From IMG/VR virus record IMGVR_UViG_2859827302_000008: a DNA stretch of 30,612 nucleotides. One strand, written 5' to 3'. This document shows, one piece after another, positions 9,555-27,305 of the stretch. The translations under genes were made by a program, and so were the position numbers. This DNA is from a virus (Duplodnaviria; Heunggongvirae; Uroviricota; Caudoviricetes). Below the pieces are notes generated by a model. It ran no database searches. It was given only the letters and a program-made list of their open reading frames with translations, and was not told the origin of the DNA. Within the stretch, counting starts at the first letter, position 1. Each line of letters starts with the position of its first letter.

Positions 9555-9564
9555 TTTTTTGCAT

Positions 9565-9590: not shown

Positions 9591-9661
9591 AAATTCATAA
9601 AAACTGCTGCCTATTAATAAAATTTTTTAGCTGAGTTAAAGAACCTCATTTAGTGATTACG

Positions 9662-10696
9662 TTAAGTAGCTAGTTTATAACTATCAAATTTAACAATGTT
9701 CTCACTTACCAATTTATTTATTTCCATCATTCTTTTTTGTAACGGTATTAACTCGTTACGTACAAACACCAGGCTCGCCTTCTCCACATCCCCAAACCCC
9801 CCGACATTATTAGGCATAATCCCCATCATTTGCGGTGGCACACGATGCGCCGCCATCATGTCATCCCGGCTCACGTTCTTGATGTTCAGAAACTCATCCT
9901 TCGCCGCGACTTCTGACAACGGGATGATCTGAAGCCCGTCCTTTTTGCCGTTAGGCGAGTACATAAACAGATTGCGGAAGTTACCTGGTCCTTTGGCGCT
10001 TTTCATCGCATTGCGGAGGTTGTTCACATCCTCCTGGTTTTGCGCGGCATCGGTCATGTACATGATGAAGCCTGCATGACTGCCGTTAATGTAATACTAT
10101 CGGCGGAACAGCGTGGCGGACTCGTTGAGCAGGGCTGACGGAATGGCAGAAAGGTAACCTGGCAGGCCGTAGATCTCTTGGTTGATGTCCGGTTCCATCA
10201 GATGAAAGATGCTTCCTTTCGTGAACTGATACGGCTGCGTGGTCATGCCGTATTGCACAAACCAGTAGGTATCCAGGTCTAATCCGCGTCGGGTGTATTT
10301 TGCCAGAGCAGGCTCAAGAGCGATGACCTCTCCGAACCGGTTTGTGCGTTTCTCCAGGTAAGCGTTACCAAATACCAGATAATCCTGCACAAAACGTGAA
10401 AAAGCCTGCTGGCTGAGCAGCGGGTGAGGGATGTAGGTACTGATCAGAATGTTGCATTTCACCGCAATTGGTGAACTGTGATGCACGGCGGCGCGGAAGG
10501 TGCGCGCCAGTCCGTCAAAACTCACTGGCGGCTCATACCAGCGATCTGTCTGTACGCATTCCACATAGTCCAGTAGTTCACGGCGGTCCAGAACCGGAAC
10601 GGGATCGCCGAAGCTGAATGCTTCGGCTGAAGTCTGGTTTTTATGCTGGGTCTGTTTCGTCGCCGCAGCGCGGTTCTTCTTACTCTTTCCCATCAA
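9662..10696 (-). pseudogene. Q: P2-type portal protein gene Q with one in-frame amber codon (TAG at 10097..10099)
   Basis: Two minus-strand ORFs (10097..10696 and 9662..10063) share one frame and are separated only by the TAG plus 11 sense codons. Combined length (~344 codons) fits a P2-type portal. Confidence 0.85.
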
Positions 10697-12459
10697 AAAA
10701 TCTCCACAATATTGCTGGTATTGGCGGACTCGCCCTGCAGCGGTTCGTTAAACAGTGCGTGCATTGTTGCCCAGGCCAGATCGGCATGGCTGGCTTCTTC
10801 GCTGCGGCTGGCTTCATAGGTCGGGCGGTTGCCGCTGGCGGTGGTGGCGCGACGGATTGCCATGAATGACTGCGCAATGTCGGTGTGCCCGGCGTCAAAC
10901 TCAAGACGGCGGTGGCTGATAATGTCGTAGGCCTTGAGTACCAGGGCGTTTTTAACGTTGGGGTTGTAGACAAACTCCCGGACGGCAGGAAAAAACGCTT
11001 TCACGTTCTCGTAAACCCCGTGACCAACGCCGGTTGAGTCGATGCCGATATAGGTCACGTTGTACTGTTCAGTCAGTTTTTTGATGGCGTAAGCCTGGGC
11101 GCGAAAGTCCATTCCGCGCCACTGGTGACGCTCAAGAATGCGGAACTTACCGCCTGGCACGGCTGGCGGTGCCACCACCACGCATCCGGCGCTGTCGCCG
11201 TTCTGCGTACCTTTTGCCGGGTCATAACCGATCCACACTTCGCGCCAGCCAAACGGGCGCAGGGCCAGTGCATGAAAGTCGGTCCAGACTTCCCAGCTGT
11301 CCACCATGCACGCCTGCAATTCGCTGAGCGGGAACACGGACGCGAGATCGTCCACGAACTCGCACATCAGCAGGTTCTGGTATTCGTCAGGGCTGTACTC
11401 CATGCGCAACTGGTCAAGGTCGAACAGGTTACAGGCGCCGCGCACCGCATCTTCCACGGTGACTATCTGGCGGTATTGCCCGTCTGCGCACAGCAGGCCG
11501 GGGGCCAGATTGCTGTGGGACAGGTCGATGTCCACCTTGTCAGCTTTGTTGCGCCCACGGTTGAACAGCGCACCGGACCAGAACGGATAAGCACTGTGGG
11601 TCAGACTGGATGGTGTGGAAAAATAGGTCTGCCGCCATTTCTTGTGAATAGCCATACCAGAAGCCACTTTGCGTAGCTCCTGAAATTTCGGTATCCAGAA
11701 ATATTCATCCAGATACAGGTTACCGTGATAACTCTGGGCAGTGCGGGCATTGGTGCCGAGGAAATACAGTGTGGCCCCGTTGGGAAGCACCATCGGATCG
11801 CCTTTCAGCTCCACCTCCACTTCTTTGGCAAAGTCGATGATGTACTGTTTGAAGACGTGGGCCTGTGCCTTACTGGCAGAAAGGAAAATCTGGTTACGTC
11901 CGGTAAGCAGGGCGTCAATCAGGGCTTCACGGGCAAAATAGAAGGTCGCGCCGATCTGGCGTGACTTCAGCAGGTTGCGGATGCGGTTGGTTTTTCCGGC
12001 TTCCCACCAGTGGCGCTGGTAGTTGAACATGGAGGAATGGAAATTTTTTTCCAGCTTCTCAATCTGGTCATCGGTGAAAACATTCTTTTCAGGCTGACGG
12101 CGTGGGCCTTTGTTGCGGTTGGCGACGTTAGGGTTTAAGTCGGCTTCGTTGCCGCCATTGTTAAACTTGCCGATCCGCGCGTGGCGCTCAGACTGGCGCG
12201 CCAGCAGGTCAATATCTTTGAAATCTTTCCCTTCTTTGTGCTCCTTCATGATGAGCTGGCAGTAGCGTGCGGCGGTGGTGAGCTGCATCTGATCCAGAGG
12301 CCCATAGTCACCCCACTTGTCGCGTTTTTTTCAGCTGTAAACGGTTGCAACTTTCTCGCCCAGCATTTCAGCAATGCGGGCTACGCGGTATCCCTGAAAG
12401 TACAGCAGCATGGCCTGCCGACGGGGATCGAGATCTGCGGGTGTCAGTGTGGTGTTCAT
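10693..12459 (-). pseudogene. P: P2-type terminase large (ATPase) subunit gene P with in-frame opal codon (TGA at 12331..12333)
   Basis: ATG at 12459 opens MNTTLTPADLDPRRQAMLLYFQGYRVARIAEMLGEKVATVYS, then TGA, then the same frame continues into the 531-aa ORF 10693..12288. Confidence 0.85.
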
Positions 12460-12505
12460 GGCACAAACCTACAGCCTTGAATGAAGGCTTTCCCCGCCTG
12501 CGGTT

Positions 12506-12523
12506 TGTGTGGTTGTCGGTACA
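12506..12523. promoter_or_regulatory. Ogr/Delta-type late-promoter dyad TGT-N12-ACA between divergent P and O
   Basis: TGTgtggttgtcggtACA in the P-O intergenic region. P2 late promoters are known to carry a TGT-N12-ACA activator site (recalled). Confidence 0.4.
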
Positions 12524-12601
12524 AATACCGCGCATTGTTTCACTGCCCCTATCACCGCAACCATAAGGCTCCAGTAAGTTTTTTCTAACGGAGCACGGCT
12601 C

Positions 12602-13435
12602 ATGACAGTGAAAGCAAAGCGTTTTCGCATCGGGGTGGAAGGTGCCACCACCGACGGACGCGAAATCCAGCGTGAATGGCTGGAACAGATGGCAGCCAGC
12701 TATAACCCGGCGGTGTATACCGCGCTGATTAACCTTGAGCACATCAAGTCTTATCTGCCGGACAGCACCTTTAACCGCTACGGCAAGGTGACGGCGCTGT
12801 TTGCTGAAGAAATCACGGAAGGTCCGCTGGCAGGCAAGATGGCGCTGTATGCTGACGTTGAGCCAACGGAGTCCCTGGTGGAACTGGTGAAAAAAGGCCA
12901 GAAATTATTCACCTCTATGGAAGTCAGCCCGAAGTTCGCTGATACGGGCAAAGCCTACCTGGTCGGCCTGGCTGCCACTGATGACCCTGCCAGTCTGGGC
13001 ACTGAAATGCTGACATTCAGCGCCAGTGCAGCCCATAACCCGCTGGCAAACCGCAAGCAGAATCCCGCCAATCTCTTTACCGCCGCAGAGGAAACGGTGA
13101 TCGAACTGGAAGAAGTCCAGGACGACAAACCGTCCCTGTTTGCCCGCGTCACGGCGCTGTTTACCAAAAAAGAGCAGTCCGATGACGCCCGGTTCTCTGA
13201 TGTGCATAAGGCCGTGGAGCTGGTCGCCACTGAGCAGCAGAACCTGAGCGCACGCACCGAAAAATCCCTGTCTGAGCAGGAAGAACGCCTGTCTGAGCTG
13301 GAGACTGCCCTGCAGGCACAGCAAACCGCCTTTAACGAACTGGTGGACAAGCTGAGTCATGAAGACAGCCGCCAGGACTACCGCCAGCGTGCAACAGGCG
13401 GTAACGCCCCCGCTGACACTCTGACCAATTGCTGA
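12602..13435 (+). CDS. O: Capsid scaffolding protein (gpO-like)
   Basis: 277-aa ORF, first rightward late gene, acidic coiled-coil-rich translation; position and size match P2 gpO. Confidence 0.85.
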   Translation: MTVKAKRFRIGVEGATTDGREIQREWLEQMAASYNPAVYTALINLEHIKSYLPDSTFNRYGKVTALFAEEITEGPLAGKMALYADVEPTESLVELVKKGQKLFTSMEVSPKFADTGKAYLVGLAATDDPASLGTEMLTFSASAAHNPLANRKQNPANLFTAAEETVIELEEVQDDKPSLFARVTALFTKKEQSDDARFSDVHKAVELVATEQQNLSARTEKSLSEQEERLSELETALQAQQTAFNELVDKLSHEDSRQDYRQRATGGNAPADTLTNC

Positions 13436-13451
13436 TGGAGCACAAAACCTG

Positions 13452-14510
13452 ATGAAGAAGAATACCCGCTTTGCTTTTAACGCTTACCTGCAGCAACTGG
13501 CGCGTCTGAACGGTGTGGCAGTTGAAGAACTGTCCAGCAAGTTCACCGTAGAGCCGTCCGTGCAGCAGACGCTGGAAGACCAGATCCAGCAGTCCGCCGC
13601 TTTCCTGACTCTGATTAACGTCACGCCAGTGACTGAGCAGTCCGGTCAGCTGCTGGGGTTGGGAGTTGGCAGCACCATTGCCGGAACCACTGATACCACT
13701 GCGAAAGAGCGTGAACCTGTCGATCCGACGCTGATGGTCGATGTGGAATATAAATGCGAGCAGACCAACTTTGACACGGTGCTGACCTACGCGAAGCTGG
13801 ACCTGTGGGCGAAGTTTCAGGATTTTCAGGTGCGTATCCGTGACGCCATCGTGAAACGTCAGGCACTGGACCGCATCATGATCGGCTTTAATGGCGTGAA
13901 GCGTGCGAAAACCTCCAACCGTAGCGAAAACCCGCTGCTGCAGGATGTGAATAAAGGCTGGCTGCAGAAAATCCGTGAGGATGCACCGGATCACGTCATG
14001 GGCAGCACCACCACGGGCGGTGAAACCACACCGGGCGCAGTGAAAGTCGGGAAAGGTGGCGAATATGCCAACCTGGACGCCGTGGTGATGGATGCCGTCA
14101 ATGAGCTTATCGACGTGGTCTACCAGGACGATGACGATCTGGTGGTGATTTGCGGTCGTGAACTGCTGTCTGACAAGTATTTCCCGCTGGTCAACAAAGA
14201 GCAGGAAAACAGTGAAAAACTGGCTGCCGATATGATCATCAGTCAGAAACGCATGGGTGGCCTGCAGGCCGTGCGTGCGCCGTTCTTCCCGCCGAATGCG
14301 CTGCTGATCACCCGTCTGGATAACCTGTCCATCTACTGGCAGGAAGACACCCGCCGCCGTTCAGTTATCGACAACCCGAAACGTGACCGGATTGAAAACT
14401 TTGAATCCGTTAACGAAGCCTATGTGGTTGAGGACTACCGCTGCGCCGCACTGGTGGAAAACATCCAGATTAGTGATTTCAGCGCCGCCGCAGCCGAAAC
14501 CGGAGCGTAA
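13452..14510 (+). CDS. N: Major capsid protein (gpN-like)
   Basis: 352-aa ORF immediately after O; size and synteny match P2 gpN. Confidence 0.9.
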   Translation: MKKNTRFAFNAYLQQLARLNGVAVEELSSKFTVEPSVQQTLEDQIQQSAAFLTLINVTPVTEQSGQLLGLGVGSTIAGTTDTTAKEREPVDPTLMVDVEYKCEQTNFDTVLTYAKLDLWAKFQDFQVRIRDAIVKRQALDRIMIGFNGVKRAKTSNRSENPLLQDVNKGWLQKIREDAPDHVMGSTTTGGETTPGAVKVGKGGEYANLDAVVMDAVNELIDVVYQDDDDLVVICGRELLSDKYFPLVNKEQENSEKLAADMIISQKRMGGLQAVRAPFFPPNALLITRLDNLSIYWQEDTRRRSVIDNPKRDRIENFESVNEAYVVEDYRCAALVENIQISDFSAAAAETGA

Positions 14511-14513
14511 TCC

Positions 14514-15164
14514 ATGAGCCTGAGTCCCGCACGGCAGCATCGCCTGCGCGTTCAGGCTGAACAGGTCGCCCGTGAGGGTGGCAGTGTTCGCCACGCATCG
14601 GGCTATGACCTGATGCTGCTGCAACTGGCGGAAGACCGCCGCCGTCTCAAGGGCGTTCAGTCCACGGTCAAAAAAGCGGAAATCAAAGTGGAGCTGCTGC
14701 CGAAGTACGCCGCCTGGGCGGAGGGTGTCCTGGCTGCCGGAGGCGCTCAACAGGATGACGTGCTGATGTACGTGATGTTGTGGCGCATTGATGCCGGAGA
14801 TTATGCCGGGGCGCTGGAGATCTGGCGTCATGCCCTGCGTCATGGATGGGTGATGCCGCTGGGCAACCGCAACGTGCAGACCGTGCTGACAGAGGAAATG
14901 GCAGATGCAGCGCAGAGCGCAATGCTTGCCGCCACCGGCTTTGATGCCGATCTGTTGCTGCAGACGCTGGAGCTGACAGACGGTCTGGATATGCCGGACC
15001 AGTCACGGGCACGTCTGCATAAAGCGATTGGCGCGGTCCTGAGTGAAAGCAATCCGGCTTCCGCCCTTAATCATCTCAACCATGCGTTACAGCTCGATCC
15101 CCGCTGTGGCGTGAAAAAAGACAAACAGCAGCTGGAGCGCAGACTGCGCAATGACAGCCGCTGA
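14514..15164 (+). CDS. M: Terminase small (endonuclease) subunit (gpM-like)
   Basis: 216-aa ORF after N; synteny and similarity to P2 gpM. Confidence 0.8.
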   Translation: MSLSPARQHRLRVQAEQVAREGGSVRHASGYDLMLLQLAEDRRRLKGVQSTVKKAEIKVELLPKYAAWAEGVLAAGGAQQDDVLMYVMLWRIDAGDYAGALEIWRHALRHGWVMPLGNRNVQTVLTEEMADAAQSAMLAATGFDADLLLQTLELTDGLDMPDQSRARLHKAIGAVLSESNPASALNHLNHALQLDPRCGVKKDKQQLERRLRNDSR

Positions 15165-15259
15165 CAGAACGTGCCCCCGCGCACGGGCGGCACGGGGTGG
15201 CGAAAGGCACAGCCACATCAAAACCCCGTCCACCGCCCTTTATTTCAGGAGAAAGCAGC

Positions 15260-15706
15260 ATGAAGTTTGTTGCGCCAGAACAGGCACCGGAACAGGCGGA
15301 AATCATTAGAAATACGCCGTTCTGGCCTGATGTGGACCTGTCGGAGTTTCGCAGTGTCATGCGCACTGACGGCACGGTGACGCAGCCGCGTTTAAAGTAG
15401 GTTGCACTGTCGGCAATTTCGGAGGTTAACGCAGAGCTGTATGAGTTTCGCAGACGCCAGCAGATGCTGGGGTATGCGTCGGAACAGCTGGACGGGAAAA
15501 GTGAGCGCATTCAGCACTATTTCAACGCGGTTTACTGCTGGGCTCGCGCCATGCTCAACGAACGTTTCCAGGACTATGACGCCACGGCATCCGGTGCGAA
15601 GCGGGGCGAAGAACTGGCGGAAGCAAGCGGTGATTTGTGGCGTGACGCCCGCTGGGCCATCAGCCGGGTGCAGGACGCGCCGCACTGCACAGTGGAGCTT
15701 ATCTGA
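15260..15706 (+). pseudogene. L: Head completion protein gene L with in-frame amber codon (TAG at 15398..15400)
   Basis: ATG 15260 with AGGAG ribosome-binding site. Translation …NTPFWPDVDLSEFRSVMRTDGTVTQPRLK-stop-VALSAISEVNAELYEF… continues in the same frame to 15706 and resembles P2 gpL on both sides of the stop. Confidence 0.8.
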
Positions 15707-15909
15707 TGAAAGTGCGTGCGCATCAGTATGACACGGTGGACGCGCTTTGCTGGCGTCATTACGGGCGCACGCAGGGTGTCACGGAGCAGGTACTGAAGGC
15801 AAATCCGGGGCTTGCCGAATACGGCCCCTTTGTACCTCACGGGCTGCAGGTGGAGCTGCCGGACATTCCGACCACCACCACCGTGCAGACCGTCCAGCTA
15901 TGGGACTGA
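15706..15909 (+). CDS. X: Tail protein X (gpX-like)
   Basis: 67-aa ORF whose start overlaps the L stop (ATGA); size and position match P2 gpX. Confidence 0.75.
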   Translation: MKVRAHQYDTVDALCWRHYGRTQGVTEQVLKANPGLAEYGPFVPHGLQVELPDIPTTTTVQTVQLWD

Positions 15910-15912
15910 ATT

Positions 15913-16128
15913 ATGACGCTTGAGCGAATCAGCGCCTTTATCACGTATTGCATCGCCGTCGTGCTGGCCTGGCTGGGCGATTTGTCCATCAAGGATGCCT
16001 CAACGCTGGGCGGCCTGATGATTGGTGTGCTGATGCTGGCTATCAACTGGTACTACAAACACAAAGCCTACCAGCTTCTGCGCGACGGGCAGATCTCGCG
16101 GGAGGACTATGAATCCATCAATCGTTAA
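15913..16128 (+). CDS. Y: Holin, small two-TMD type (pinholin-like)
   Basis: 71-aa ORF with two hydrophobic segments and a charged C-terminus, immediately upstream of the endolysin. Confidence 0.65.
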   Translation: MTLERISAFITYCIAVVLAWLGDLSIKDASTLGGLMIGVLMLAINWYYKHKAYQLLRDGQISREDYESINR

Positions 16129-16621
16129 ACGCTGCCTTGTCGGGGCCGTGCTGGCTATTGCTGCCACGCTGCCGGGTTTTCAGCAGCTTCACACCTCCGT
16201 GGAGGGACTGAAACTGATTGCCGATTACGAAGGTTGTCGTCTGCAGCCGTATCAGTGCAGCGCGGGTGTCTGGACCGACGGTATTGGTAATACGTCGGGC
16301 GTCATTCCTGGCAAAACCATTACGGAGCGACAGGCAGCAGAAGGGCTGATCTCCAACGTGCTGCGTGTGGAGCGGGCGCTGGAAAGGTGTGTGAAGCAAC
16401 AGCCGCCGCAGAAGGTGTATGACGCTGCGGTGTCGTTTGCCTTCAACGTGGGTACGGGCAATGCCTGCAGTTCCACGCTGGTGAAATTGCTCAATCAGCG
16501 GCGCTGGGCGGATGCGTGCCGACAGTTGCCGCGCTGGGTTTATGTGAAAGGTGTTTTTAATCAGGGGCTGGATAACCGCCGTGCGCGGGAGATGGCCTGG
16601 TGTTTACAGGGAGCAAACTGA
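16109..16621 (+). CDS. K: Endolysin, T4-lysozyme-like muramidase with N-terminal signal-anchor-release (SAR)-like segment
   Basis: Translation has the E…D…T catalytic arrangement (…DYEGCRLQPYQCSAGVWTDGIGNT…), closely resembling the P1 Lyz-type SAR endolysin as recalled. N-terminal weakly hydrophobic stretch CLVGAVLAIAATLPGF. Confidence 0.85.
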   Translation: MNPSIVKRCLVGAVLAIAATLPGFQQLHTSVEGLKLIADYEGCRLQPYQCSAGVWTDGIGNTSGVIPGKTITERQAAEGLISNVLRVERALERCVKQQPPQKVYDAAVSFAFNVGTGNACSSTLVKLLNQRRWADACRQLPRWVYVKGVFNQGLDNRRAREMAWCLQGAN

Positions 16622-16622
16622 A

Positions 16623-17000
16623 ATGAAAAAGAAATTAATCAGCGGGCTGTTTCTGATGTTATGGATGGCGCTGTTAATCGCAGCAATAGTGTATCCGCAG
16701 GGGATTTTTCCGGTACTGGCAGCGTCCGGCGTTTGGGTAGCCTGTTTACTGACATGGGCGGTAATTCCGGTAGCACTGGCTTCGTTAATTAAGAATGGCC
16801 CGCTCTGGCAGGAGTTGAGGGCATCTTTACTGAAGACAATTACCCGAAAAGAAAACGTATTTATCAGCTGGGTGATACGATTGCTGATTGTCGTCAGTCT
16901 CGCCTGGACGGGGTGGGCCATTACCCTGGTCTTTTATCTGCTGACCGTTATTGCCTTCTGGATCACCCGTAATCAGATGGCGCAACAGGTAGCCGCATGA
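16623..17000 (+). CDS. lysA: LysA-like lysis-timing membrane protein
   Basis: 125-aa ORF from ATG 16623 with about four hydrophobic helices, in the lysis cassette. Confidence 0.6.
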   Translation: MKKKLISGLFLMLWMALLIAAIVYPQGIFPVLAASGVWVACLLTWAVIPVALASLIKNGPLWQELRASLLKTITRKENVFISWVIRLLIVVSLAWTGWAITLVFYLLTVIAFWITRNQMAQQVAA

Positions 17001-17425
17001 ACCGGTTGCTGCTGGTTGTGCTGGCGTTATTATTGGCGGCGCTGGGCTGGCAGACGTGGCGGCTGGCTGATGCCAGCCAGACCATCAGCACGCAGGCAGA
17101 CGAGCTGCAGAGCAAAAGCCAGGCACTGGCAAAGAGCAACAGCCAGCTTATCAGCCTGTCCATTCTGACTGAAACCAATAACCGGGAGCAGGCGCGGCTC
17201 TATGCCGAAGCAGAACAGACCAGTGTACTGCTGAGACAACGACAACGCCGGATTGAGGAACTGAAACGTGAGAACGAGGATTTACGTCGCTGGGCTGATA
17301 CTCCTTTGCCTGCTGACATTATCCGGCTGCGGGAACGTCCGGCACTCACCGGAGGTGCAGCTTACCGTCAGTGGTTGTCCGCGAGTGACGCCGTGTCGGC
17401 TGGAGCAGGCAGCGCCGCGCACTAA
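16997..17425 (+). CDS. lysB: LysB, Rz-like inner-membrane spanin
   Basis: 142-aa ORF with N-terminal TMD and coiled-coil-rich periplasmic part. Confidence 0.7.
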   Translation: MNRLLLVVLALLLAALGWQTWRLADASQTISTQADELQSKSQALAKSNSQLISLSILTETNNREQARLYAEAEQTSVLLRQRQRRIEELKRENEDLRRWADTPLPADIIRLRERPALTGGAAYRQWLSASDAVSAGAGSAAH

Positions 17426-17558
17426 CGGTGATCTGAATGCGTTGCTGGATGAAACGGAGGCCGCCTGGGCGGTCTGTGCAGACAAAGTGGACATGATTAT
17501 TGCGTGTCAGGAGCGAAATAGTGAACAAACCACAATCCCTGCGCCACGCCCTCAATAA
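17268..17558 (+). CDS. lysC: LysC, Rz1-like outer-membrane lipoprotein spanin (overlapping lysB in another frame)
   Basis: Signal peptide with lipobox LTLSGC, proline-rich mature part, overlapping the 3' end of lysB. Confidence 0.6.
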   Translation: MRTRIYVAGLILLCLLTLSGCGNVRHSPEVQLTVSGCPRVTPCRLEQAAPRTNGDLNALLDETEAAWAVCADKVDMIIACQERNSEQTTIPAPRPQ

Positions 17559-17952
17559 AGCAGTGCCTTATGTCCGTAATAACCCGGACAAACTGCATCT
17601 GTTTGTGGATAACGGTTCGCTGGTTGCCTCCGGGGCTAGCTCCATGTCATGGGAGTACCGCTACACCCTGAACGTGGTGATTGAAGATTTCAGCGGCGAC
17701 CAGAATCTGCTGATGGCCCCGGTTTTGCTGTGGCTGCGGGATAACCAGCCCGATGCGATCAATAACCCGGCGTTACGGGAAAAGCTATTCACCTTTGAGG
17801 TGGATATTCTGCGCAACGATGTCTGTGATATCAGCCTTAACCTGCAACTGACGGAGCGTGTGCTGGTCAGCACTGACGGCAGTGTGTCGAACGTTGAAGC
17901 GGTAGCGGAACCTGATGAACCTGAAGAAATGTGGACGGTGAAACGTGGCTGA
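17500..17952 (+). CDS. R: Tail completion protein R
   Basis: 150-aa ORF; size, position and similarity match P2 gpR. Confidence 0.75.
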   Translation: MRVRSEIVNKPQSLRHALNKAVPYVRNNPDKLHLFVDNGSLVASGASSMSWEYRYTLNVVIEDFSGDQNLLMAPVLLWLRDNQPDAINNPALREKLFTFEVDILRNDVCDISLNLQLTERVLVSTDGSVSNVEAVAEPDEPEEMWTVKRG

Positions 17953-18346
17953 ATTGCAGAAGGTGGACGACTGGCTGAGTGCATTATTGGCGAATCTGGA
18001 GCCAGCCGCAAGAAGCCGCATGATGCGCCAGCTGGCGCAGGAACTGCGCCGGACACAGCAGCAGAACATCAGGATGCAGCGCAATCCAGATGGCAGCAGT
18101 TATGAGCCGCGCAGGGTAACAGCACGCAGCAAAAAGGGGCGCATCAAACGTCAGATGTTTACAAAGCTGCGCACCACAAAATACCTGAAAACTGCAGCCA
18201 GCGCCGATTCTGCCAGCGTACAGTTTGAAGGTAGGGTGCAGCGCATTGCCCGTATTCACCATTACGGCTTGAGTGATCGCGTCAGTCGAAAAGGTATTTA
18301 TACCATCTATGCGAAAAGGCAGTTATTAGGTTTTAATGTCCGGTAA
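17945..18346 (+). pseudogene. S: Tail completion protein gene S, 3' end replaced by the IS1 terminus
   Basis: GTG-initiated ORF. The last codons and the stop (TAA 18344..18346) lie at the junction with and inside the IS1 inverted repeat that starts at 18342. Confidence 0.7.
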
Positions 18347-18396
18347 TGCTGCCAACTTACTGATTTAGTGTATGATGGTGATTTTAAGGTGCTTGC

Positions 18397-18672
18397 GTGG
18401 CTTCCATTTCCATCAGATGTCCTTCCTGCTCCGCTATTGAAGGCGTGGTGCGTAACGGCAAAAGCACTGCCGGACATCAGCGCTATCTCTGCTCTCATTG
18501 CCGTAAAACATGGCAATTACAGTTCACTTACACCGCCTCTCAGCCCGGTACGCACCAGAAAATCATTGATATGGCCATGAATGGCGTCGGATGTCGCGCC
18601 AGTGCACGCATTATGGGCGTTGGCCTCAACACGGTTTTACGTCACTTAAAAAACTCAGGCCGCAGTCGGTAA
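18397..18672 (+). CDS. insA: IS1 InsA
   Basis: 91-aa [26 protein letters not shown]… with zinc-finger and HTH regions, characteristic of IS1 InsA. Confidence 0.9.
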
Positions 18673-19094
18673 CCTCGCGCATACAACCGGGCAGTGATGT
18701 GATTGTCTGCGCTGAAATGGACGAACAGTGGGGCTACGTCGGTGCTAAATCACGTCAGCGCTGGCTGTTTTACGCGTATGACAGGATACGGAGGACGGTT
18801 GTGGCGCACGTCTTCGGTGAACGCACTCTGGCCACACTGGAGCGTCTTCTGAGCCTGCTGTCGGCCTTTGAGGTCGTGGTATGGATGACGGATGGCTGGC
18901 CGCTGTATGAATCACGCCTGAAGGGAAAGCTGCACGTTATCAGCAAGCGTTACACTCAGCGCATTGAGCGACATAATCTGAATCTGAGACAACATCTGGC
19001 AAGGCTGGGACGGAAGTCACTGTCGTTCTCAAAATCGGTGGAGCTGCATGACAAGGTCATCGGGCATTATCTGAACATAAAACACTATCAGTAA
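18591..19094 (+). CDS. insB: IS1 InsB reading frame (expressed as InsAB' transposase by -1 frameshift)
   Basis: 167-aa ORF overlapping insA in the -1 frame, ending 15 bp before the right inverted repeat. Confidence 0.85.
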
Positions 19095-19109
19095 GTTGGC
19101 AGCATTACC

Positions 19110-19624
19110 ATGCAGCCCTCACAATATAGTTAAAAGCGACATTTCGTGGGCGTGTTTCATTCGCACCTGCAGGTTTAGTCGTTGCCGCAACAACACCACC
19201 CTCTGTAATAGCCGGGTTGGGAATTGGGTAATTATCGAAGTCAATGGCCGGAGACAGGGGCGTGATTTGTTTTAAAATCGTGGTGCCTGTAAAACTTTCC
19301 AGAGTCTGGTCGTTAGTTCGTGAAGTCCAGATTCCCCAATAGTGGTTATGACTGACAATCGCACCGTCCTGAAGCGTTAATAATCCCCTTCCGTTATCCA
19401 CTCCACGTCCGTCATCCCAGCCACGAATAAACTCACCGCGTAAATCAGGCAATTTATTTGTCGGGTAAGCCTTTGCCAGTTCCGGGTATTCTTCAGCAGA
19501 AAAAGCCGCACCATTGCATTTCAGCCAGCCTGTCGGCGGAGTGGCTGAAGGCCACGGAACAGGCACACCAACAGGTAATGCAGAGCCTTCTCCCAAACCA
19601 ACGTTTAAGAAAATGCAGAGATAA
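19110..19624 (-). pseudogene. Orphan tail-fibre variable C-terminal segment (Sv'-type, inverted orientation), lacking its constant 5' partner
   Basis: Minus-strand translation …PVPWPSATPPTGWLKCNGAAFSAEEYPELAKAYP…ETRPRNVAFNYIVRAAW is typical of invertible-segment tail-fibre tips. The 5' end begins within the gix-like site and the 3' end abuts IS1, which supplies the stop codon. Confidence 0.65.
19599..19624. promoter_or_regulatory. gix/pix-like DNA-invertase crossover site
   Basis: TTCTCCCAAACCAACGTTTAAGAAAA versus recalled gix consensus TTATCCAAAACCTCGGTTTACAGGAA. It lies inside the tail-fibre reading frame, next to the invertase gene. Confidence 0.5.
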
Positions 19625-19668
19625 TGGCTAACTGGCATCATCTCCGGTTTTTATTCAGGGGATTGATC

Positions 19669-20235
19669 ATGCTTATTGGCTATGTACGCGTGTCAACAAA
19701 TGACCAGAACACCGATTTGCAACGTAATGCACTGAACTGCGCGGGATGTGAGCGGATTTTTGAGGATAAAATCAGTGGCACTAAGCCCGACAGACCGGGG
19801 CTTAAAAAACTGCTCAGGACACTATCGGCAGGAGACACGCTGGTTGTCTGGAAGCTGGACAGACTGGGACGCAGTATGCGGCATCTTGTTACGCTGATAG
19901 AAGAGTTGCGCCAGCGTGGTGTGAATTTCCGAAGCCTGACTGACAGTATTGATACCAGTACCCCAATGGGCCGTTTCTTTTTTCACGTCATGGGGGCTCT
20001 GGCTGAAATGGAACGTGAACTGATAGTTGAACGTACCAGAGCAGGGCTGGCTGCAGCTCGTGCCAAAGGCAGAGTAGGTGGACTCCGTCCTAAGTTGACC
20101 ACCGAACAGTGGGCACAGATTGGACGTTTACTCGAGGCCGGAGAATCAAGACAGCGTATTGCACTGATTTTTGATGTGGGCGTTTCTACCATTTATAGAA
20201 AATTTCCGGCGAATGAGAGCAATGAATCGCCCTGA
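19669..20235 (+). CDS. pin: Serine-recombinase DNA invertase (Pin/Gin/Hin/Cin family)
   Basis: Translation MLIGYVRVSTNDQNTDLQRNAL…VVWKLDRLGRSM…GALAEMERELI… carries the catalytic Ser in YVRVST and a C-terminal HTH. Start taken as ATG 19669. Confidence 0.9.
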   Translation: MLIGYVRVSTNDQNTDLQRNALNCAGCERIFEDKISGTKPDRPGLKKLLRTLSAGDTLVVWKLDRLGRSMRHLVTLIEELRQRGVNFRSLTDSIDTSTPMGRFFFHVMGALAEMERELIVERTRAGLAAARAKGRVGGLRPKLTTEQWAQIGRLLEAGESRQRIALIFDVGVSTIYRKFPANESNESP

Positions 20236-20283
20236 GTCAGTATTATTTTGATTTTTCCTGTAAGCGGACAAATACCGTCATTT

Positions 20284-20301
20284 TGTGTGAATAACGACAC
20301 A
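20284..20301. promoter_or_regulatory. Ogr/Delta-type late-promoter dyad TGT-N12-ACA upstream of FI
   Basis: TGTgtgaataacgacACA about 75 bp upstream of the FI start. Confidence 0.4.
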
Positions 20302-20377
20302 ACTGCGCTTAGCTGTTTGTCAGGCACAATCACTTCAACATAGGGCGAAGCCTAATCCAATCAGGAGGTTCGCCACT

Positions 20378-21550
20378 ATGGCTCAGGATTACCACCACGG
20401 GGTGCGCGTTGTTGAAGTCAACGAAGGCACCCGATCCATTACCACGGTGAGCACCGCCATCGTGGGTATGGTCTGCACGGGCGATGATGCCGATGCAAAA
20501 ATGTTTCCTCTTAATAAACCTGTGCTGATCACTGATGTGCTGACCGCCAGCGGTAAAGCGGGTGAGTCTGGCACGCTGGCCCGTTCGCTGGATGCCATCG
20601 CTGACCAGGCAAAACCCGTGACCGTTGTTGTGCGTGTGCCGCAGGGTGAAACGGAAGAAGAAACCACAACCAATATCATTGGCGCAGTGACCGCCGAGGG
20701 TAAAAAAACAGGTATGAAAGCCCTGTTATCTGCCCAGTCACAGCTCGGCGTTAAACCGCGCATTCTCGGCGTGCCAGGTCACGACACGAAGGCGGTAGCT
20801 ACTGAGTTGCTGAGCGTGGCGCAAAGCCTGCGTGGATTTGCTTACCTGTCAGCGTATGGTTGCAAGACGGTGCAGGAAGCAATCACTTACCGTGAAAACT
20901 TCAGTCAGCGTGAAGGAATGCTGATCTGGCCCGACTTTACTGGCTGGGACACGGTGCTGAATGCCGAAGCAACGGCTTATGCCACCGCCCGTGCGCTCGG
21001 TCTGCGCGCTAAAATTGATGAGCAGACCGGATGGCACAAAAGCCTGTCCAACGTGGGCGTGAACGGTGTCACCGGAATTTCTGCTGATGTGTTCTGGGAT
21101 CTGCAGAACCCGGCAACCGATGCAGGTCTGCTTAACCAGAACGATATCACCACGCTTATCCGCAAAGACGGTTTCCGCTTCTGGGGTTCCCGCTGTCTGA
21201 GCGATGATCCGCTCTTTGCCTTCGAAAACTACACCCGCACGGCGCAGGTGCTGATGGACACGATGGCAGAAGCGCACATGTGGGCGGTGGACAAACCGCT
21301 GAACCCGTCGCTGGCCCGCGACATTATCGAAGGTATCCGCGCCAAAATGCGTAGCCTGGTCAGTCAGGGCTATCTCATTGGTGGTGATTGCTGGCTGGAC
21401 GAGTCGGTGAACGATAAAGACACGCTGAAAGCCGGGAAACTCACCATCGATTACGACTACACGCCAGTGCCGCCACTTGAAAACCTGATGCTGCGTCAGC
21501 GCATCACCGATCAGTACCTGGTGAATTTCTCCAGCCAGGTCAGCGCGTAA
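20378..21550 (+). CDS. FI: Tail sheath protein (gpFI-like)
   Basis: 390-aa ORF with AGGAGG ribosome-binding site; size and position match P2 FI. Confidence 0.9.
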
Positions 21551-21559
21551 GGGGACAAC

Positions 21560-22075
21560 ATGGCTTTACCACGCAAATTAAAACACCTGAACCTGTTTAA
21601 CGACGGGAACAACTGGCAGGGGATCGTTGAGTCGCTGACGCTGCCGAAATTCACCCGCAAATATGAGAAGTATCGCGGCGGCGGTATGCCCGGAGCGGTG
21701 GATGTGGATCTGGGACTGGATGACAGTGCACTGGATACAGAATTTTCCATTGGTGGTACTGAACTGCTGCTGTTTAAGCAGATGGGCAAAGCCACGGTGG
21801 ATGGCATCCAGCTGCGCTTTACCGGCTCTATTCAGCGTGATGATACCGGGGAAGTGCAGGCCGTGGAGCTTGTGGTGCGTGGACGTCACAAAGAAGTAGA
21901 TTCCGGCGAGTGGAAGACGGGCGAAAGCAACACTACCAAAGTGACCAGTACCAACAGCTACGCGAAGCTGACCATCAATGGTGAGGTGCTCTATGAAGTG
22001 GACCTGATCAACATGGTGGAAATTGTGGACGGTGTGGACCTGATGGAAGCGCACCGCAACGCCCTCGGCCTCTGA
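21560..22075 (+). CDS. FII: Tail tube protein (gpFII-like)
   Basis: 171-aa ORF directly after FI; matches P2 FII. Confidence 0.9.
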   Translation: MALPRKLKHLNLFNDGNNWQGIVESLTLPKFTRKYEKYRGGGMPGAVDVDLGLDDSALDTEFSIGGTELLLFKQMGKATVDGIQLRFTGSIQRDDTGEVQAVELVVRGRHKEVDSGEWKTGESNTTKVTSTNSYAKLTINGEVLYEVDLINMVEIVDGVDLMEAHRNALGL

Positions 22076-22129
22076 TGTATCTGAACGGCGCGGAATGCCG
22101 CGCCAGAACCTAATTTACAGGACAACAAA

Positions 22130-22432
22130 ATGAGCGATAAGCAGACTGAAAAGACCATTCAACTGGATACTCCCATCATGCGCGGTAAAACAGAAATTAC
22201 CGAAATTGTGTTGCGTAAACCGCAGTCCGGTGCGCTGCGCGGCACACGCCTGCAGGCCATTATGGATATGGATGTGAACGCGATGATGACCGTGATCCCC
22301 CGCATCTCCAGTCCGGCACTGACTGCACAGGAAATTGCAGAGATGGACCCGGCAGATCTCACTGCCATGTCGGTTGAGGTTGTCACTTTTTTGTTGAAGA
22401 AGTCGGTGCTTGCCGGTTTACCGACAGCCTGA
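22130..22432 (+). CDS. E: Tail assembly chaperone E
   Basis: 100-aa ORF between the tube and tape-measure genes, containing the slippery heptamer near its 3' end. Confidence 0.75.
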   Translation: MSDKQTEKTIQLDTPIMRGKTEITEIVLRKPQSGALRGTRLQAIMDMDVNAMMTVIPRISSPALTAQEIAEMDPADLTAMSVEVVTFLLKKSVLAGLPTA

Positions 22433-22566
22433 CGGTTGACGATCTGGTGGCTGATATCGCCACCATCTTTCACTGGCCGCCATCCGTTACTGACGTTATG
22501 CCGCTGACCGAAGTGCTGGAATGGCGGGATAAAGCGATTCAGAGAAGCGGGGCCAGCCATGAGTGA
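22130..22566 (+). CDS. E': E+E' product made by programmed -1 frameshift at T_TTT_TTG (22387..22393)
   Basis: Slippery heptamer is in X_XXY_YYZ phase with the E frame. The -1 frame stays open to TGA 22564..22566 and encodes …SLTVDDLVADIATIFHWPPS…, overlapping the T start. Confidence 0.6.
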
Positions 22567-25500
22567 CAATAACCTGCGTCTGCAGGTGATTCTTAATGCG
22601 GTTGACAAACTCACCCGCCCATTTCGATCCGCGCAGGCCAGTTCAAGAGAACTGGCTGCTGCTGTCAAAAAATCCCGCGATGCAATAAAGCAGCTTGATC
22701 AGGCCGGGAGCAGTCTGGACAGCTTCCGAAAGCTGCAGGCAGAAAATCAGAAATTAGGCGACAGGCTGAACTATGCCCGCCAGCGTGCAAATTTGCTCAG
22801 TCAGGAACTGGGAGCGATGGGGCCGCCTTCGCAACGTCAGGTTGTTGCTCTGGGCCGTCAACGGCTGGCTGTTCAGCGCCTGGAAGAACGCCAGAAAAAG
22901 CTGCAGCAGCAGACGGCGCTTGTGCGTGCAGAACTTTATCGTGCTGGTATTTCAGCTAATGATGGCGCCAGTGCGACGGCCCGCATTACCCGTGAAACGA
23001 TGCGTTATAACAGGCAGCTTTCTGAGCAGGAAGCGAGGTTACGACGTGTCGGGGAGCAACAGCGAAAAATGCACGCCGCCCGGGGGGCTTACGCCAGGCG
23101 TCTTGAGGTAAGGGATCGTATTGCAGGTGCCGGAGCCACCACCACGGCTGCAGGGCTGGCAATGGGCGCACCAGTGATGGCGGCAGTAAAAAGCTATACC
23201 AGCATGGAAGATGCCATGAAAGGTGTGGCAAAGCAGGTCAATGGTCTGCGTGACGATAATGGCAACCGCACTGCGCGTTTTTACGAAATGCAGGGTGCCA
23301 TCAAGGCTGCCAGCGAACAGTTGCCGATGGAAAACGGTGCTGTGGACTTCGCCGCACTGGTTGAAGGTGGTGCGCGCATGAACGTCGCAAACCCTGACGA
23401 CAGCTGGGAAGACCAGAAACGTGACCTGCTGGCCTTCGCCAGCACGGCGGCAAAGGCGGCAACAGCCTTTGAACTGCCAGCGGATGAACTGTCAGAAAGT
23501 CTGGGGAAAATCGCCCAGCTCTACAAAATCCCTACCCGCAATATTGAGCAGCTCGGTGATGCGCTGAACTATCTGGATGATAACGCCATGTCGAAAGGGG
23601 CGGACATCATTGATGTCATGCAACGCCTGGGCGGTGTGGCTGACCGTCTGGATTATCGTAAAGCGGCGGCGCTGGGTTCCACCTTCCTGACACTCGGCGC
23701 TGCGCCTGAGGTTGCAGCCAGTGCAGCAAACGCGATGGTGCGTGAATTGTCCATTGCCACCATGCAAAGCAAGAGTTTCTTTGAAGGGATGAATCTGCTG
23801 AAACTCAATCCAGAAGTGATTGAAAAGCAGATGACGAAGGATGCGATGGGAACTATCCAGCGGGTGCTGGAGAAGGTGAATGCGCTGCCACAGGATAAGC
23901 GCCTGTCTGCCATGACCATGTTGTTTGGTAAAGAGTTTGGCGATGACGCAGCGAAACTGGCAAACAACCTGCCGGAACTTCAGCGCCAGTTAAAACTGAC
24001 TGCGGGCAATGATGCGCTCGGTTCCATGCAGAAAGAATCCGACATCAACAAGGATTCACTTTCTGCTCAGTGGTTGCTGGTCAAAACCGGAGCACAGAAC
24101 ACCTTCAGCAGCCTGGGGGAAACGCTGCGCCAGCCGCTGATGGATATTCTGTACACGGTGAAAAGCGTCACGGGGGCGTTGCGTCGCTGGGTGGAAGCTA
24201 ACCCGGAACTGACGGGCACTCTGATGAAAGTAGCCGCTGTGGTAGCTGCCGTTACCGTGGGCCTCGGCACCTTAGCGGTGGCGCTGGCTGCAGTGCTGGG
24301 GCCGCTGGCAGTCATCCGTCTGGGATTCTCTGTGCTGGGTATCAAAACGTTACCTTCCGTTACGGCAGCAGTAACCCGAACCAGCAACGCGTTGTCCTGG
24401 CTGGCTGGCGCACCACTGGCACTGCTGCGACGCGGGCTTGCTTCATCGGGCAACGCTGCAGGTTTACTTACTGCGCCGTTGTCGTCTTTGCGCCGCACGG
24501 CATCACTGACGGGAAATGTCCTGAAAACTGTAGCAGGTGCGCCGGTTGCACTTTTGCGGTCTGGATTATCCGGTTTACGTGCGGTTGCTGTGATGTTTAT
24601 GAATCCACTGGCGGTACTACGCGGCGGACTGGCTGCCACAGGCACGGTGCTGCGTATGCTCGCATCCGGTCCACTGGCGATGCTGCGCGTTGCCCTGTAT
24701 GCCGTCTCTGGTCTGTTAGGTGCTCTGCTCAGTCTGATAGGTCTTGTGGTTACTGCACTGGCGGGTGTGGCGCTGGTTGTCTGGAAATACTGGCAGCCCA
24801 TCACCACATTTCTCGGTGGCGTGGTGGAAGGATTCAAAGCGGCGGCAGGTCCTGTCAGTGCCGCGTTCGAACCGCTTAAGCCTGTGTTCCAGTGGATTGG
24901 CGACAAAGTACAGGCGCTGTGGGGCTGGTTTACTGATCTGCTGACGCCCGTTAAGTCGACCTCTGCCGAACTGCAGAGTGCAGCGGCAATGGGGCGACGA
25001 TTCGGGGAGGCTCTGGCGGAAGGGCTGAATATGGTCATGCATCCGCTGGACTCCCTGAAATCCGGCGTTTCCTGGTTGCTGGAGAAACTTGGCATTGTCA
25101 GTAAAGAGGCCGCAAAGGCGAAACTGCCGGAAAGCGTGACGCGTCAGCAACCTGCGACGGTGAATGCAGACGGTAAAGTGATGATGCCATCGGGTGGTTT
25201 TCCGTCATGGGGATATGGCTTTGCGGGGATGTATGACAGCGGCGGGTATATCCCGCGCGGGCAGTTTGGCATCGTCGGTGAAAACGGGCCGGAAATTGTT
25301 AACGGCCCGGCAAATGTGACCAGCCGGAGAAATACAGCTGCACTGGCTGCCGTTGTTGCCGGAATGATGGGTGTTGCTGCTACGCCAGCAGAGCTTCCAC
25401 CGTTGCACCCTTTGGCACTTCCCGCGAAAGGCGGTGAAGCGATGGTGAGTCGTGCAGCCACTGTGCCGCCCGTTCAACGGATTGAGGCACCGATGCAGAT

Positions 25501-25636
25501 CATCATTCAAACGCAGCCAGGACAAAGTGCGCAGGATATTGCGCGGGAGGTGGCCCGCCAGCTTGATGAACGTGAACGCAGGCTGAAGGCAAAAGCCAGG
25601 AGTAACTACAGCGATCAGGGGGGATACGACGCATGA
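22559..25636 (+). CDS. T: Tail tape-measure protein (gpT-like)
   Basis: 1025-aa ORF; coiled-coil N-terminal half, Ala/Leu/Gly-rich repetitive hydrophobic middle, located after E/E'. Confidence 0.9.
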   Translation: MSDNNLRLQVILNAVDKLTRPFRSAQASSRELAAAVKKSRDAIKQLDQAGSSLDSFRKLQAENQKLGDRLNYARQRANLLSQELGAMGPPSQRQVVALGRQRLAVQRLEERQKKLQQQTALVRAELYRAGISANDGASATARITRETMRYNRQLSEQEARLRRVGEQQRKMHAARGAYARRLEVRDRIAGAGATTTAAGLAMGAPVMAAVKSYTSMEDAMKGVAKQVNGLRDDNGNRTARFYEMQGAIKAASEQLPMENGAVDFAALVEGGARMNVANPDDSWEDQKRDLLAFASTAAKAATAFELPADELSESLGKIAQLYKIPTRNIEQLGDALNYLDDNAMSKGADIIDVMQRLGGVADRLDYRKAAALGSTFLTLGAAPEVAASAANAMVRELSIATMQSKSFFEGMNLLKLNPEVIEKQMTKDAMGTIQRVLEKVNALPQDKRLSAMTMLFGKEFGDDAAKLANNLPELQRQLKLTAGNDALGSMQKESDINKDSLSAQWLLVKTGAQNTFSSLGETLRQPLMDILYTVKSVTGALRRWVEANPELTGTLMKVAAVVAAVTVGLGTLAVALAAVLGPLAVIRLGFSVLGIKTLPSVTAAVTRTSNALSWLAGAPLALLRRGLASSGNAAGLLTAPLSSLRRTASLTGNVLKTVAGAPVALLRSGLSGLRAVAVMFMNPLAVLRGGLAATGTVLRMLASGPLAMLRVALYAVSGLLGALLSLIGLVVTALAGVALVVWKYWQPITTFLGGVVEGFKAAAGPVSAAFEPLKPVFQWIGDKVQALWGWFTDLLTPVKSTSAELQSAAAMGRRFGEALAEGLNMVMHPLDSLKSGVSWLLEKLGIVSKEAAKAKLPESVTRQQPATVNADGKVMMPSGGFPSWGYGFAGMYDSGGYIPRGQFGIVGENGPEIVNGPANVTSRRNTAALAAVVAGMMGVAATPAELPPLHPLALPAKGGEAMVSRAATVPPVQRIEAPMQIIIQTQPGQSAQDIAREVARQLDERERRLKAKARSNYSDQGGYDA

Positions 25637-26118
25637 TGATGGTGCTGGGATTGTACGTGTTTATGCTGCGCACCGTGCCGTATCAGGAGCTGCAGTATCA
25701 ACGCAGCTGGCGACATGCGGCAAACAGCCGGGTAAACCGACGCCCGTCAACGCAGTTTCTGGGACCGGACAACGACATGCTGACGCTTTCTGGTGTTCTT
25801 ATGCCGGAGGTAACGGGCGGCAGGCTGTCGTTGCTGGCTCTGGAGCAGATGGCAGAACAGGGAAAAGCATGGCCCCTGATTGAAGGCAGCGGCACGATTT
25901 ACGGCATGTATGTGATTGAGGGACTGAATCAGACTAAAACGGAGTTTTTCCGCGACGGTATGCCGCGCCGGATTGAGTTCACCCTGTCGCTAAAACGCGT
26001 GGATGAATCCCTGTCCGATATGTTCGGTGATCTCAGTGCGCAACTGAATAATCTGCAGGGAACGGCAACATCTGCCTTAAGCGATATCAGTAAAACGGTG
26101 GGAGGGCTGCTGTCGTGA
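25633..26118 (+). CDS. U: Tail protein U
   Basis: 161-aa ORF coupled to T (ATGA overlap); size and position match P2 gpU. Confidence 0.8.
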   Translation: MMMVLGLYVFMLRTVPYQELQYQRSWRHAANSRVNRRPSTQFLGPDNDMLTLSGVLMPEVTGGRLSLLALEQMAEQGKAWPLIEGSGTIYGMYVIEGLNQTKTEFFRDGMPRRIEFTLSLKRVDESLSDMFGDLSAQLNNLQGTATSALSDISKTVGGLLS

Positions 26119-27215
26119 ATTTCAGCTCTGAACTGCTTAACAAAGGCAACAAAACTCCGGCATTCAGCATCAGTATTGAAGGCAGGGATATCACCACTGT
26201 GCTGGACAACCGCCTGATGGGGCTGACGCTGACGGATAACCGGGGCTTTGAGGCGGACTAGCTTGATCTGGAGCTGGACGACGCCGATGGAAAAATCGTG
26301 CTGCCGCGCCGTGGGGCTGTCATTACGCTGGCGCTGGGCTGGAAGGGACAGCCGCTTTTCCCGAAAGGGGCATTCACGGTGGACGAGATTGAACACACTG
26401 GCGCACCGGATCGCCTGACTATCCGGGCGCGAAGTGCTGATTTTCGTGAAACGCTGAATACCCGCCGTGAAAAGTCGTGGCACAAGACCACCGTTGGGGA
26501 AGTGGTGAAGGAAATAGCTGCGCGGCACAAACTGAAGATGGCATTGGGTGAAGACTTGTCGGATAAACTCGTGGAGCATATAGACCAGACTAATGAGAGT
26601 GACGGCAGTTTTTTGATGCGGCTGGCGCGCCAGTACGGTGCTATTGCGTCGGTGAAAAATGGCAATCTGTTATTCATCCGGCAGGGGCAGGGTAAAAGCG
26701 CCAGCGGTAAACCACTACCGGTGATCACTATCACACGCAAGGACGGCGACAGTCACCGCTTTACCCTGGCAGATCGCGGAGCTTACACGGGCGTCATTGC
26801 CAGCTGGTTGCATACCCGCGAACCCGCGAAGAAAGAAAGCACCACGGTGAAGCGTAAGCGCAGGACTAAGAAGCAGAAGAAAGAGCCGGAAGCGAAGCAG
26901 GGCGATTACCTGGTGGGTACGGATGAAAACGTGCTGGTACTTAATCGCACTTATGCCAACCGGAGCAACGCCGAACGGGCAGCGAAAATGCAGTGGGAAC
27001 GCCTGCAACGCGGCGTTGCATCATTCTCGCTACAACTGGCGGAAGGGCGGGCAGATCTCTACACAGAAATGCCTGTGAAGGTCAGTGGCTTTAAACAGCC
27101 GATAGATGATGTGGAATGGACCATTACGACTCTGACGCATACTGTCAGCCCGGATAACGGTTTTACGACCAGTCTGGAGCTTGAAGTGAGGATTGATGAT
27201 TTCGAAATGGAATGA
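26115..27215 (+). pseudogene. D: Tail protein gene D with in-frame amber codon (TAG at 26259..26261)
   Basis: GTG 26115 opens VNFSSELLNKGNKTPAFSISIEGRDITTVLDNRLMGLTLTDNRGFEAD, then TAG, then the same frame continues LDLELDDADG… through the 305-aa ORF to 27215. Confidence 0.8.
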
Positions 27216-27305
27216 TTCTTCGCAATGGAGAACTTTTAAGTTTGCAAAATGGAATAATGCGGTATCATTATTGTGAATTTAGCAAAAATGGGGAGAACTC
27301 GAAAA

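Follow-up and report, generated by a model that had tools for sequence, protein, structure and literature searches.

Successive nonsense substitutions in the late genes of a defective P2-family prophage of Shigella are consistent with ordinary neutral decay

Shigella genomes are degraded through insertion sequences (IS), nonsense mutations and deletions (PMC7373316), and the reductive evolution of these bacteria joins IS expansion to nonsense, frameshift and deletion lesions (PMC7373316, PMC3218036). In addition, grounded or defective prophages are known to be kept by their hosts (PMC6379469). The stretch of DNA analysed here (30,612 nucleotides; hereafter the window) matches CP026828.1, whose species label is Shigella dysenteriae (PMC10501659), with 100% identity. 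It shares with Shigella reductive evolution the IS families and the IS-linked deletions, and here, too, point nonsense mutations have reached fixation within lineages and differ from one lineage to the next. Indeed, we found no essential difference from that process, except that our analysis follows one locus over nested genomes rather than surveying whole genomes. Like grounded prophages, the remnant in the window is vertically inherited, widespread and equipped with intact accessory cargo. Unlike them, its structural genes carry no sign of purifying selection, and a hint of constraint is found only in the cargo pair.

The prophage remnant adjoining ybjL

The window contains the P2-family late genes for portal (Q), terminase (P), scaffold (O), capsid (N), M, L, X, the lysis genes, R, S, sheath (FI), tube (FII), E, T, U, D and ogr. 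Their order, Q-P / O-N-M-L-X-lysis-R-S ... FI-FII-E-T-U-D-ogr, is common to P2/186-type phages, and both this order and the homology of the encoded proteins, judged from the annotation of a relative and the Pfam families of the called genes, place the element in the P2 family. Laboratory P2 (NC_001895.1) is a distant member, being only 67.3% identical to the window over 90% of Q-P. A much closer intact relative is the prophage of Escherichia coli UPEC-245U (NZ_CP049845.1, L002), which occupies the same ybjL integration site, is 99.6-99.8% identical to the window and has an early region resembling that of phage 186. In contrast to this relative, the window copy is without int, CI, the segment from cII through the N-terminus of dam, V, W, J, I and most of H, its replication gene A is interrupted by an IS66-family element, and it carries stop codons in the four genes Q, P, L and D. 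It therefore lacks the integrase, the repressor and the intact replication gene that a complete, inducible element would have. No tRNA genes were found in the window by ARAGORN.

The gross lesions are linked to IS of three families (IS3-family, IS66 and IS1), with IS1 occurring twice in the window. At the left end, the 3' part of an IS3-family element (positions 1-659, + strand; NF033516) truncates dam, leaving a methylase fragment (660-1302, +) without its first ~72 codons. The genes int, CI, cII, fil and others to the left of this element are missing in the window strain; beyond it, CP026828.1 carries rutR/putA/putP upstream of the prophage, with int and CI absent there. Gene A (1299-6162, +) is interrupted by the IS66-family element (tnpA, tnpB and tnpC; 2825-5264, +), which is flanked by an 8-bp target duplication, CATTGACG. 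The tail completion gene S (17945-18341, +) is truncated at codon 133 by a 768-bp IS1 (18342-19109, +) standing in place of the end of S, a DUF5677 gene, V, W, J, I and most of H. What remains of the tail-fibre gene H is a C-terminal part with a Pfam Collar domain (19110-19604, -), which belongs to an invertible segment and is inverted relative to the intact relative. The invertase ORF of 203 aa was unmatched in the records, and gene callers take a 188-aa start. Every Shigella copy compared had the cII-to-dam deletion associated with the IS3-family element, as well as an IS1-linked deletion of tail genes.

Lesions of the same types also strike host chromosomal genes, as expected under neutral decay: in the same genome, the neighbouring potF carries an amber codon (Q250, CAG>TAG) and grxA an IS1 insertion. 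Frameshifts were absent from the window's own lineage and present on sister branches of the same remnant. Five 1-bp indels in one sister genome, L044 (CP026842.1), could be assembly errors.

Four nonsense substitutions and their order

The preliminary description had reported single nonsense substitutions in Q, P, L and D, three of them amber. We checked the stops base by base against the closest intact P2-like genome, the UPEC-245U prophage at the same ybjL site, which bore this out: every change is a substitution and not a frameshift, Q, L and D carry TAG and P carries TGA, and translation in the original frame gives full-length products with exactly one internal stop each. The portal gene Q spans 9662-10693 on the minus strand, rather than ending at 10696 as first described, and is interrupted by an amber at codon 199 (AAG>TAG at 10097-10099, changed base 10099). 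The terminase ATPase gene P (10693-12459, -) has an opal at codon 43 (TGG>TGA at 12331-12333, changed base 12331). The head-completion gene L (15260-15706, +) has an amber at codon 47 (CAG>TAG at 15398-15400, changed base 15398), and the tail gene D (26115-27215, +) one at codon 49 (CAG>TAG at 26259-26261, changed base 26259). The C-terminal fragment of D begins at a TTG, and its database match was made with the first residue as M. The description of these lesions as clean holds as far as frameshifts are concerned, but L has also lost 18 bp in frame (codons 74-79, junction 15479/15480), and there are missense changes in P (four: H41Y, E82D, I139N and D457Y), Q (T84I) and D (A333V). Since all four outgroups carry a sense codon at each of the four positions, all four stops are derived on the window branch.

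Comparison across Shigella genomes gave nested allele matrices in which the stops appeared in the order Q, L, P and D. The Q amber is common to all 17 Shigella copies compared and is the only one of the four stops in group A genomes. Group B genomes add the L stop and the IS66 insertion in A. In both groups P encodes an intact protein of 588 aa. The P opal, seen only in the window and L008-L014, was added to the group B state, by which time P had already gained its four missense changes along with a synonymous one. The D amber, the latest of the four, is limited to the window's sublineage, and D is intact in L004-L006, L039, L040, L043 and L044. Sites in the chromosomal flank are nested in the same way as the prophage alleles. 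The copies examined that bear the Q amber already have the IS-linked losses of early and tail genes, and the Q amber may have come before or after the first IS events. The lesions thus built up stepwise along the phylogeny. Very recent relaxation of selection had been offered as one explanation; relaxed selection is supported, but it is not very recent, with the stops accrued singly along the Shigella lineage.

Neutral expectation and competing explanations

On the window branch, 36 coding substitutions could be polarised, excluding sites in the cargo region, for which there are no outgroups. They comprise 9 synonymous, 23 missense and 4 nonsense changes, against a neutral expectation of 11.1, 23.1 and 1.85, respectively. 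The nonsense count is about twice that expected, an excess that is not significant (P(>=4) = 0.11); with a uniform mutation spectrum instead, P is 0.045. The spectrum of the 36 substitutions is strongly biased (28 GC>AT versus 2 AT>GC, including 22 C>T and 6 C>A), in agreement with the AT-biased mutation reported to be universal (PMC2936535). This spectrum accounts for the stop types: the predicted shares of new stops are 0.53 amber, 0.27 ochre and 0.21 opal, roughly half being TAG because CAG and TGG are common codons, and the probability of at least three ambers among four is 0.35. Among 80 distinct phage-gene variants pooled from 25 Shigella copies, 28 are synonymous, 48 missense and 4 nonsense, so that stops make up 5.0%. 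The dN/dS ratio is about 1 on the lineage, also downstream of the stops, and substitution density is similar in the prophage (0.233%) and the chromosomal flank (0.254%). The pattern therefore does not exceed chance and needs no special explanation. This runs against the earlier view that clean nonsense codons are unusual in natural decay, since ~5% of neutral substitutions are expected to be nonsense and 4 of the 80 variants are.

Two further candidate regularities were rejected. Late genes make up ~69% of the coding sites compared, and the location of all four stops within them is readily obtained by chance (P ~0.23). Deamination at Dcm sites (second C of CCWGG) as the cause of the CAG>TAG changes was not borne out: 0 of 3 mutated sites are CCWGG, the ancestral contexts being AAGCAGG (L), GACCAGC (D) and TGGCAGG (potF).

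These data argue strongly, with a probability of about 0.93, that the four stops represent ordinary Shigella-type pseudogenization, one gene at a time, of a vertically inherited and irreversibly defective P2-family prophage adjoining ybjL. The early and tail genes fell to IS-linked deletions, and from then on the remaining morphogenesis genes would have been under no selection; the loss of selection probably came after the gross lesions. Substitutions would then have built up at the rate of the flanking chromosome, with a dN/dS of ~1 and a GC>AT bias, and ~5% of them would have made stop codons. Given this fraction and the amber share, the four stops can be read as successive neutral hits in Q, L, P and D. 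Pseudogenization of this type is a phenomenon already known in Shigella.

Other explanations have to account for the same observations. A host amber suppressor tRNA reading TAG in Q, L and D would keep these genes functional, and the fact that three of the four stops are amber fits such a background; the lack of tRNA genes in the window speaks neither for it nor against it. Such a suppressor is nevertheless very unlikely: the TGA in P would go unread by an amber suppressor, the proportion of amber stops matches the neutral prediction, the four stops date from different times, and neutral evolution extends downstream of them. Moreover, with A split, the genes from V to H deleted and int and CI absent, read-through could not restore a phage. 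Positive selection for head and tail knock-outs, for example to end costly or lethal late products while keeping the cargo, deserves slightly more credit and is still improbable. In its favour are the four stops against 1.85 expected and the variants of the intact cargo pair PDC-M01A/B (6 synonymous versus 2 missense) compared with those of the phage genes (28 synonymous versus 52 nonsynonymous including stops; Fisher P = 0.051). The nonsense excess is, however, not significant, and stops are exactly 5% of the variants pooled from the 25 copies. In addition, L, P and D were struck after the loss of early-region genes, tail genes and Q, so little was left for their stops to silence.

One clean nonsense codon per gene, as seen in Q, P, L and D, recalls the classical sets of conditional-lethal mutants, a likeness that favours descent from a laboratory amber-mutant stock such as the am mutants of P2 or 186, as the preliminary description had suggested. 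We consider the chance of this negligible, because P2 is far from near-identical to the window across Q-P (67%), many natural Shigella assemblies and SRA-derived contigs show the stops in a nested arrangement, and prophage and chromosomal flank have a common history of substitution. The suggestion that the stops are sequencing or assembly errors in one genome fares no better. The indels in L044 indicate that errors may occur in the genome series, but none were found for the stop sites. Identical alleles of Q, P and L occur in at least 8 independent assemblies (NCBI, Logan), records of the D-amber product come from at least 3 contigs and at least 5 samples, GCA_013883155.1 among them, and the lesions are substitutions rather than homopolymer indels.

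The cargo pair and implications for Shigella prophages

Beside Q lies an intact cargo pair (7040-9554, +) encoding an AAA ATPase and an HNH-type protein, which match the PADLOC candidate defence system PDC-M01A/B, related to Septu PtuA. The pair is intact in nearly all copies and does not belong to the decay pattern. In the assembly collection, 1555 blocks list exactly this HNH protein. Five substitutions are clustered in the intergenic stretch at 9610-9655. A compensatory hairpin there was considered and dropped, as the folds did not surpass those of shuffled sequence (z = +0.84 and -0.29).

For work on this locus, our results mean that no phage can be obtained from it upon induction, given the four stops, the missing integrase, repressor and tail genes V to H, and the split A. 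A preponderance of amber among nonsense lesions is to be expected from neutral mutation with an AT bias, and the stops should not be taken as a sign of a suppressor background or a laboratory origin. The nested Shigella series also illustrates, in a clean and datable form, how a prophage breaks up step by step, here in the order Q, L, P and D. Finally, we tentatively suggest, as a possibility with the odds somewhat against it, that the dead prophage may persist across Shigella through selection on its cargo as a candidate anti-phage system, while the head and tail genes drift. If so, the nonsense codons would mark the dispensable genes in a domesticated defence island.

The defective prophage and its intact relative

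The P2-family prophage in the window adjoins ybjL, ybjM and grxA, and a megablast search against complete E. coli genomes identified an intact relative, that of E. coli UPEC-245U (NZ_CP049845.1; hereafter L002), which occupies the same chromosomal site and is 99.6-99.8% identical to the window over the blocks common to both (window 660-2824, 5265-18341 and 19588-30303). An IS66-family element with an 8-bp target duplication lies within replication gene A (2825-5264), the end of an IS3-family element truncates dam (1-659), and a 768-bp IS1 (18342-19109) stands where L002 has the end of S, a DUF5677 gene, V, W, J, I and the greater part of H. In the region that follows (19110-20235), what is left of the H C-terminus is inverted (19110-19604) and lies beside a serine invertase gene (19669-20235) that has kept its full length and carries an R139L change. 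The right-hand junction of the IS1 deletion lies at L002 position 24976 in Shigella copies with the Q stop only (group A), versus an inverted junction at 24472 in the window and in copies that also carry the L stop and the IS66 insertion (group B), a difference suggesting that IS1-mediated deletions reached into an invertible tail-fibre segment separately or in succession.

By gene content, the early region of L002 is 186-like, with CI, CII/CP76, Fil and a DinI-like gene. Exact protein matches place the window in CP026828.1 (GCA_002950015.1), with 100% identity over 26 kb. In this genome, the IS3-family element borders on rutR-like/putA/putP (L018, a stretch of this genome, 1-9361), with no phage early genes or expected attL flank to its left. 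Therefore, the integrase and repressor are absent, and an IS-mediated rearrangement has either deleted int, CI and cII in the window's strain or separated them from the remnant. CI and a cII stub are still kept by group A relatives (e.g. CP026811 and CP162080). GCA_002950015.1 carries the species label Shigella dysenteriae and groups with S. boydii genomes (PMC10501659).

Four nonsense substitutions and their expected frequency

The preliminary description proposed that Q, P, L and D are each inactivated by a single nonsense substitution. Indeed, base-by-base comparison with L002 located AAG>TAG at codon 199 of Q (window base 10099), TGG>TGA at codon 43 of P (12331), CAG>TAG at codon 47 of L (15398) and CAG>TAG at codon 49 of D (26259), and translation in the original frame showed that the reading frame of each of the four genes in the window is full-length and unshifted, with a single internal stop. 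All four sites are sense codons in four of four outgroup prophages, and nearly all window-L002 differences are derived on the window side. These data confirm that the stops are substitutions of ancestral sense codons. L additionally has an 18-bp in-frame deletion, and missense changes are also carried by P (four), Q (one) and D (one). P (10693-12459, minus strand) has seven derived substitutions in 1767 bp versus about 2.9 expected from the average density, an excess that is possibly due to chance among about 25 genes; its four missense changes and one synonymous change were already present before its stop.

To obtain a neutral expectation, all single-base changes that could occur at the 21,791 coding sites common to the window and L002 were enumerated and weighted by the substitution spectrum of the window branch. 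The 36 polarised coding substitutions comprised 9 synonymous, 23 missense and 4 nonsense changes, versus 11.1, 23.1 and 1.85 expected, respectively. The probability of at least four nonsense changes was 0.11 (0.16 with unpolarised sites added; 0.045 under a uniform spectrum). GC>AT changes dominate the 36 substitutions (22 C>T and 6 C>A, versus 2 AT>GC), which is the mutation bias general to bacteria (PMC2936535). Given this spectrum and how these genes use codons, TAG should make up 53% of new stops, so that three or more of four stops would be amber with a probability of 0.35. None of the CAG>TAG sites lies within CCWGG, so Dcm hotspots were rejected as their cause. Among the distinct phage-gene variants pooled from 25 Shigella copies (28 synonymous, 48 missense and 4 nonsense), the stop share was 5.0%, versus 4.9-5.1% expected.

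Order of the lesions and alternative explanations

Complete Shigella genomes in intermediate states were found by exact matches to the HNH cargo protein encoded beside Q, and the allele matrices over all variable sites formed a clean nested ladder. All Shigella copies in the comparison carry the Q amber, lack the stretch from cII to the dam N-terminus (a deletion linked to an IS3-family element) and have lost tail genes through an IS1-linked deletion. CP026807, CP045784, PSSQ01, CP026834 and CP026823 gained the L amber, the 18-bp deletion and the IS66 insertion in A and retain a full-length P (588 aa). The P opal was then gained in the lineage of L008-L014 (Shigella copies) and the window, and the D amber only in the window's sublineage, D being intact in S. 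dysenteriae CDC 74-1112 and six other copies. The L, P and D stops arose in an already dead prophage; the Q stop may precede or follow the first IS events. Sites in the chromosomal flank (ybjL, ybjM and grxA) are nested like those of the prophage, and substitution densities are similar (0.233% in the prophage versus 0.254% in the flank), indicating that the remnant is inherited vertically with the chromosome.

Sequence error, a laboratory amber-mutant lineage and a suppressing host had also been offered as explanations. The Q, P and L stop alleles occur in eight independent assemblies (NCBI and SRA-derived contigs), and the D product encoded downstream of the amber codon is recorded for GCA_013883155.1 and for further samples, which excludes sequencing error. 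A laboratory history is likewise excluded, since laboratory P2 is only 67% identical in Q-P and natural isolates carry the stops in a nested pattern. Host nonsense suppression, which three amber codons might bring to mind, would be irrelevant here because the P stop is opal, A is interrupted, the tail has lost genes V to H, the integrase and repressor are absent, and the genes evolve neutrally; the window contains no tRNA genes, which speaks neither for nor against suppression.

Frameshifts do occur on sister branches, including 1-bp deletions in the ATPase (L027) and in Q (L027 and L032), a 1-bp insertion in H (L004) and a 55-bp deletion in A (L025, L028 and L032), so their absence in the window's own lineage is a sampling outcome. 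The sister Shigella genome CP026842.1 (L044; 1748-7004 and 11083-11616) has five further 1-bp indels (two in FI, two in T and one in ybjM), which are either true frameshift decay or homopolymer assembly errors, a distinction that matters to any nonsense:frameshift tally.

Reductive evolution and the retained cargo

Host genes of CP026828.1 suffer the same kind of lesion, as shown by potF (L003, another stretch of this genome, 21629-22741; about 10 kb right of the prophage and outside the window), which is split by its own CAG>TAG at Q250. Moreover, grxA (glutaredoxin 1) is interrupted by an IS1 copy (window 30304-30612), whose flanks overlap by 9 bp, suggesting that it simply inserted there; the sister assemblies L004-L006 have an intact grxA. 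The prophage matches the mixture of IS, nonsense and deletion lesions described in the reductive evolution of Shigella (PMC7373316; PMC3218036). No special mechanism is needed for the four stops, which reflect ordinary Shigella-type reductive evolution of a defective P2-family prophage.

Between the DinI-like gene and Q, an intact pair of genes (7040-9554, plus strand) encodes an AAA ATPase (549 aa) and the HNH-type protein (293 aa). The two match PDC-M01A/B, a candidate defence system in PADLOC (E = 3e-55 and 1e-33), and show a weaker match to Septu PtuA. In the assembly collection, 1555 blocks list the exact HNH protein. In the AT-rich intergenic DNA from the HNH gene to Q, the window differs from L002 by five substitutions in 46 bp (9610-9655), a density about 50 times the average; they were acquired in more than one step, 9622 is homoplasic, and predicted folds of this segment were no better than those of shuffled sequence. 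Across the 25 Shigella copies, variants in the cargo pair leaned towards synonymous changes (6 synonymous versus 2 missense), compared with 28 versus 52 for the phage genes (Fisher P = 0.051). The cargo of this dead prophage may therefore be under purifying selection, a hint that the remnant may persist on account of its candidate defence cargo.
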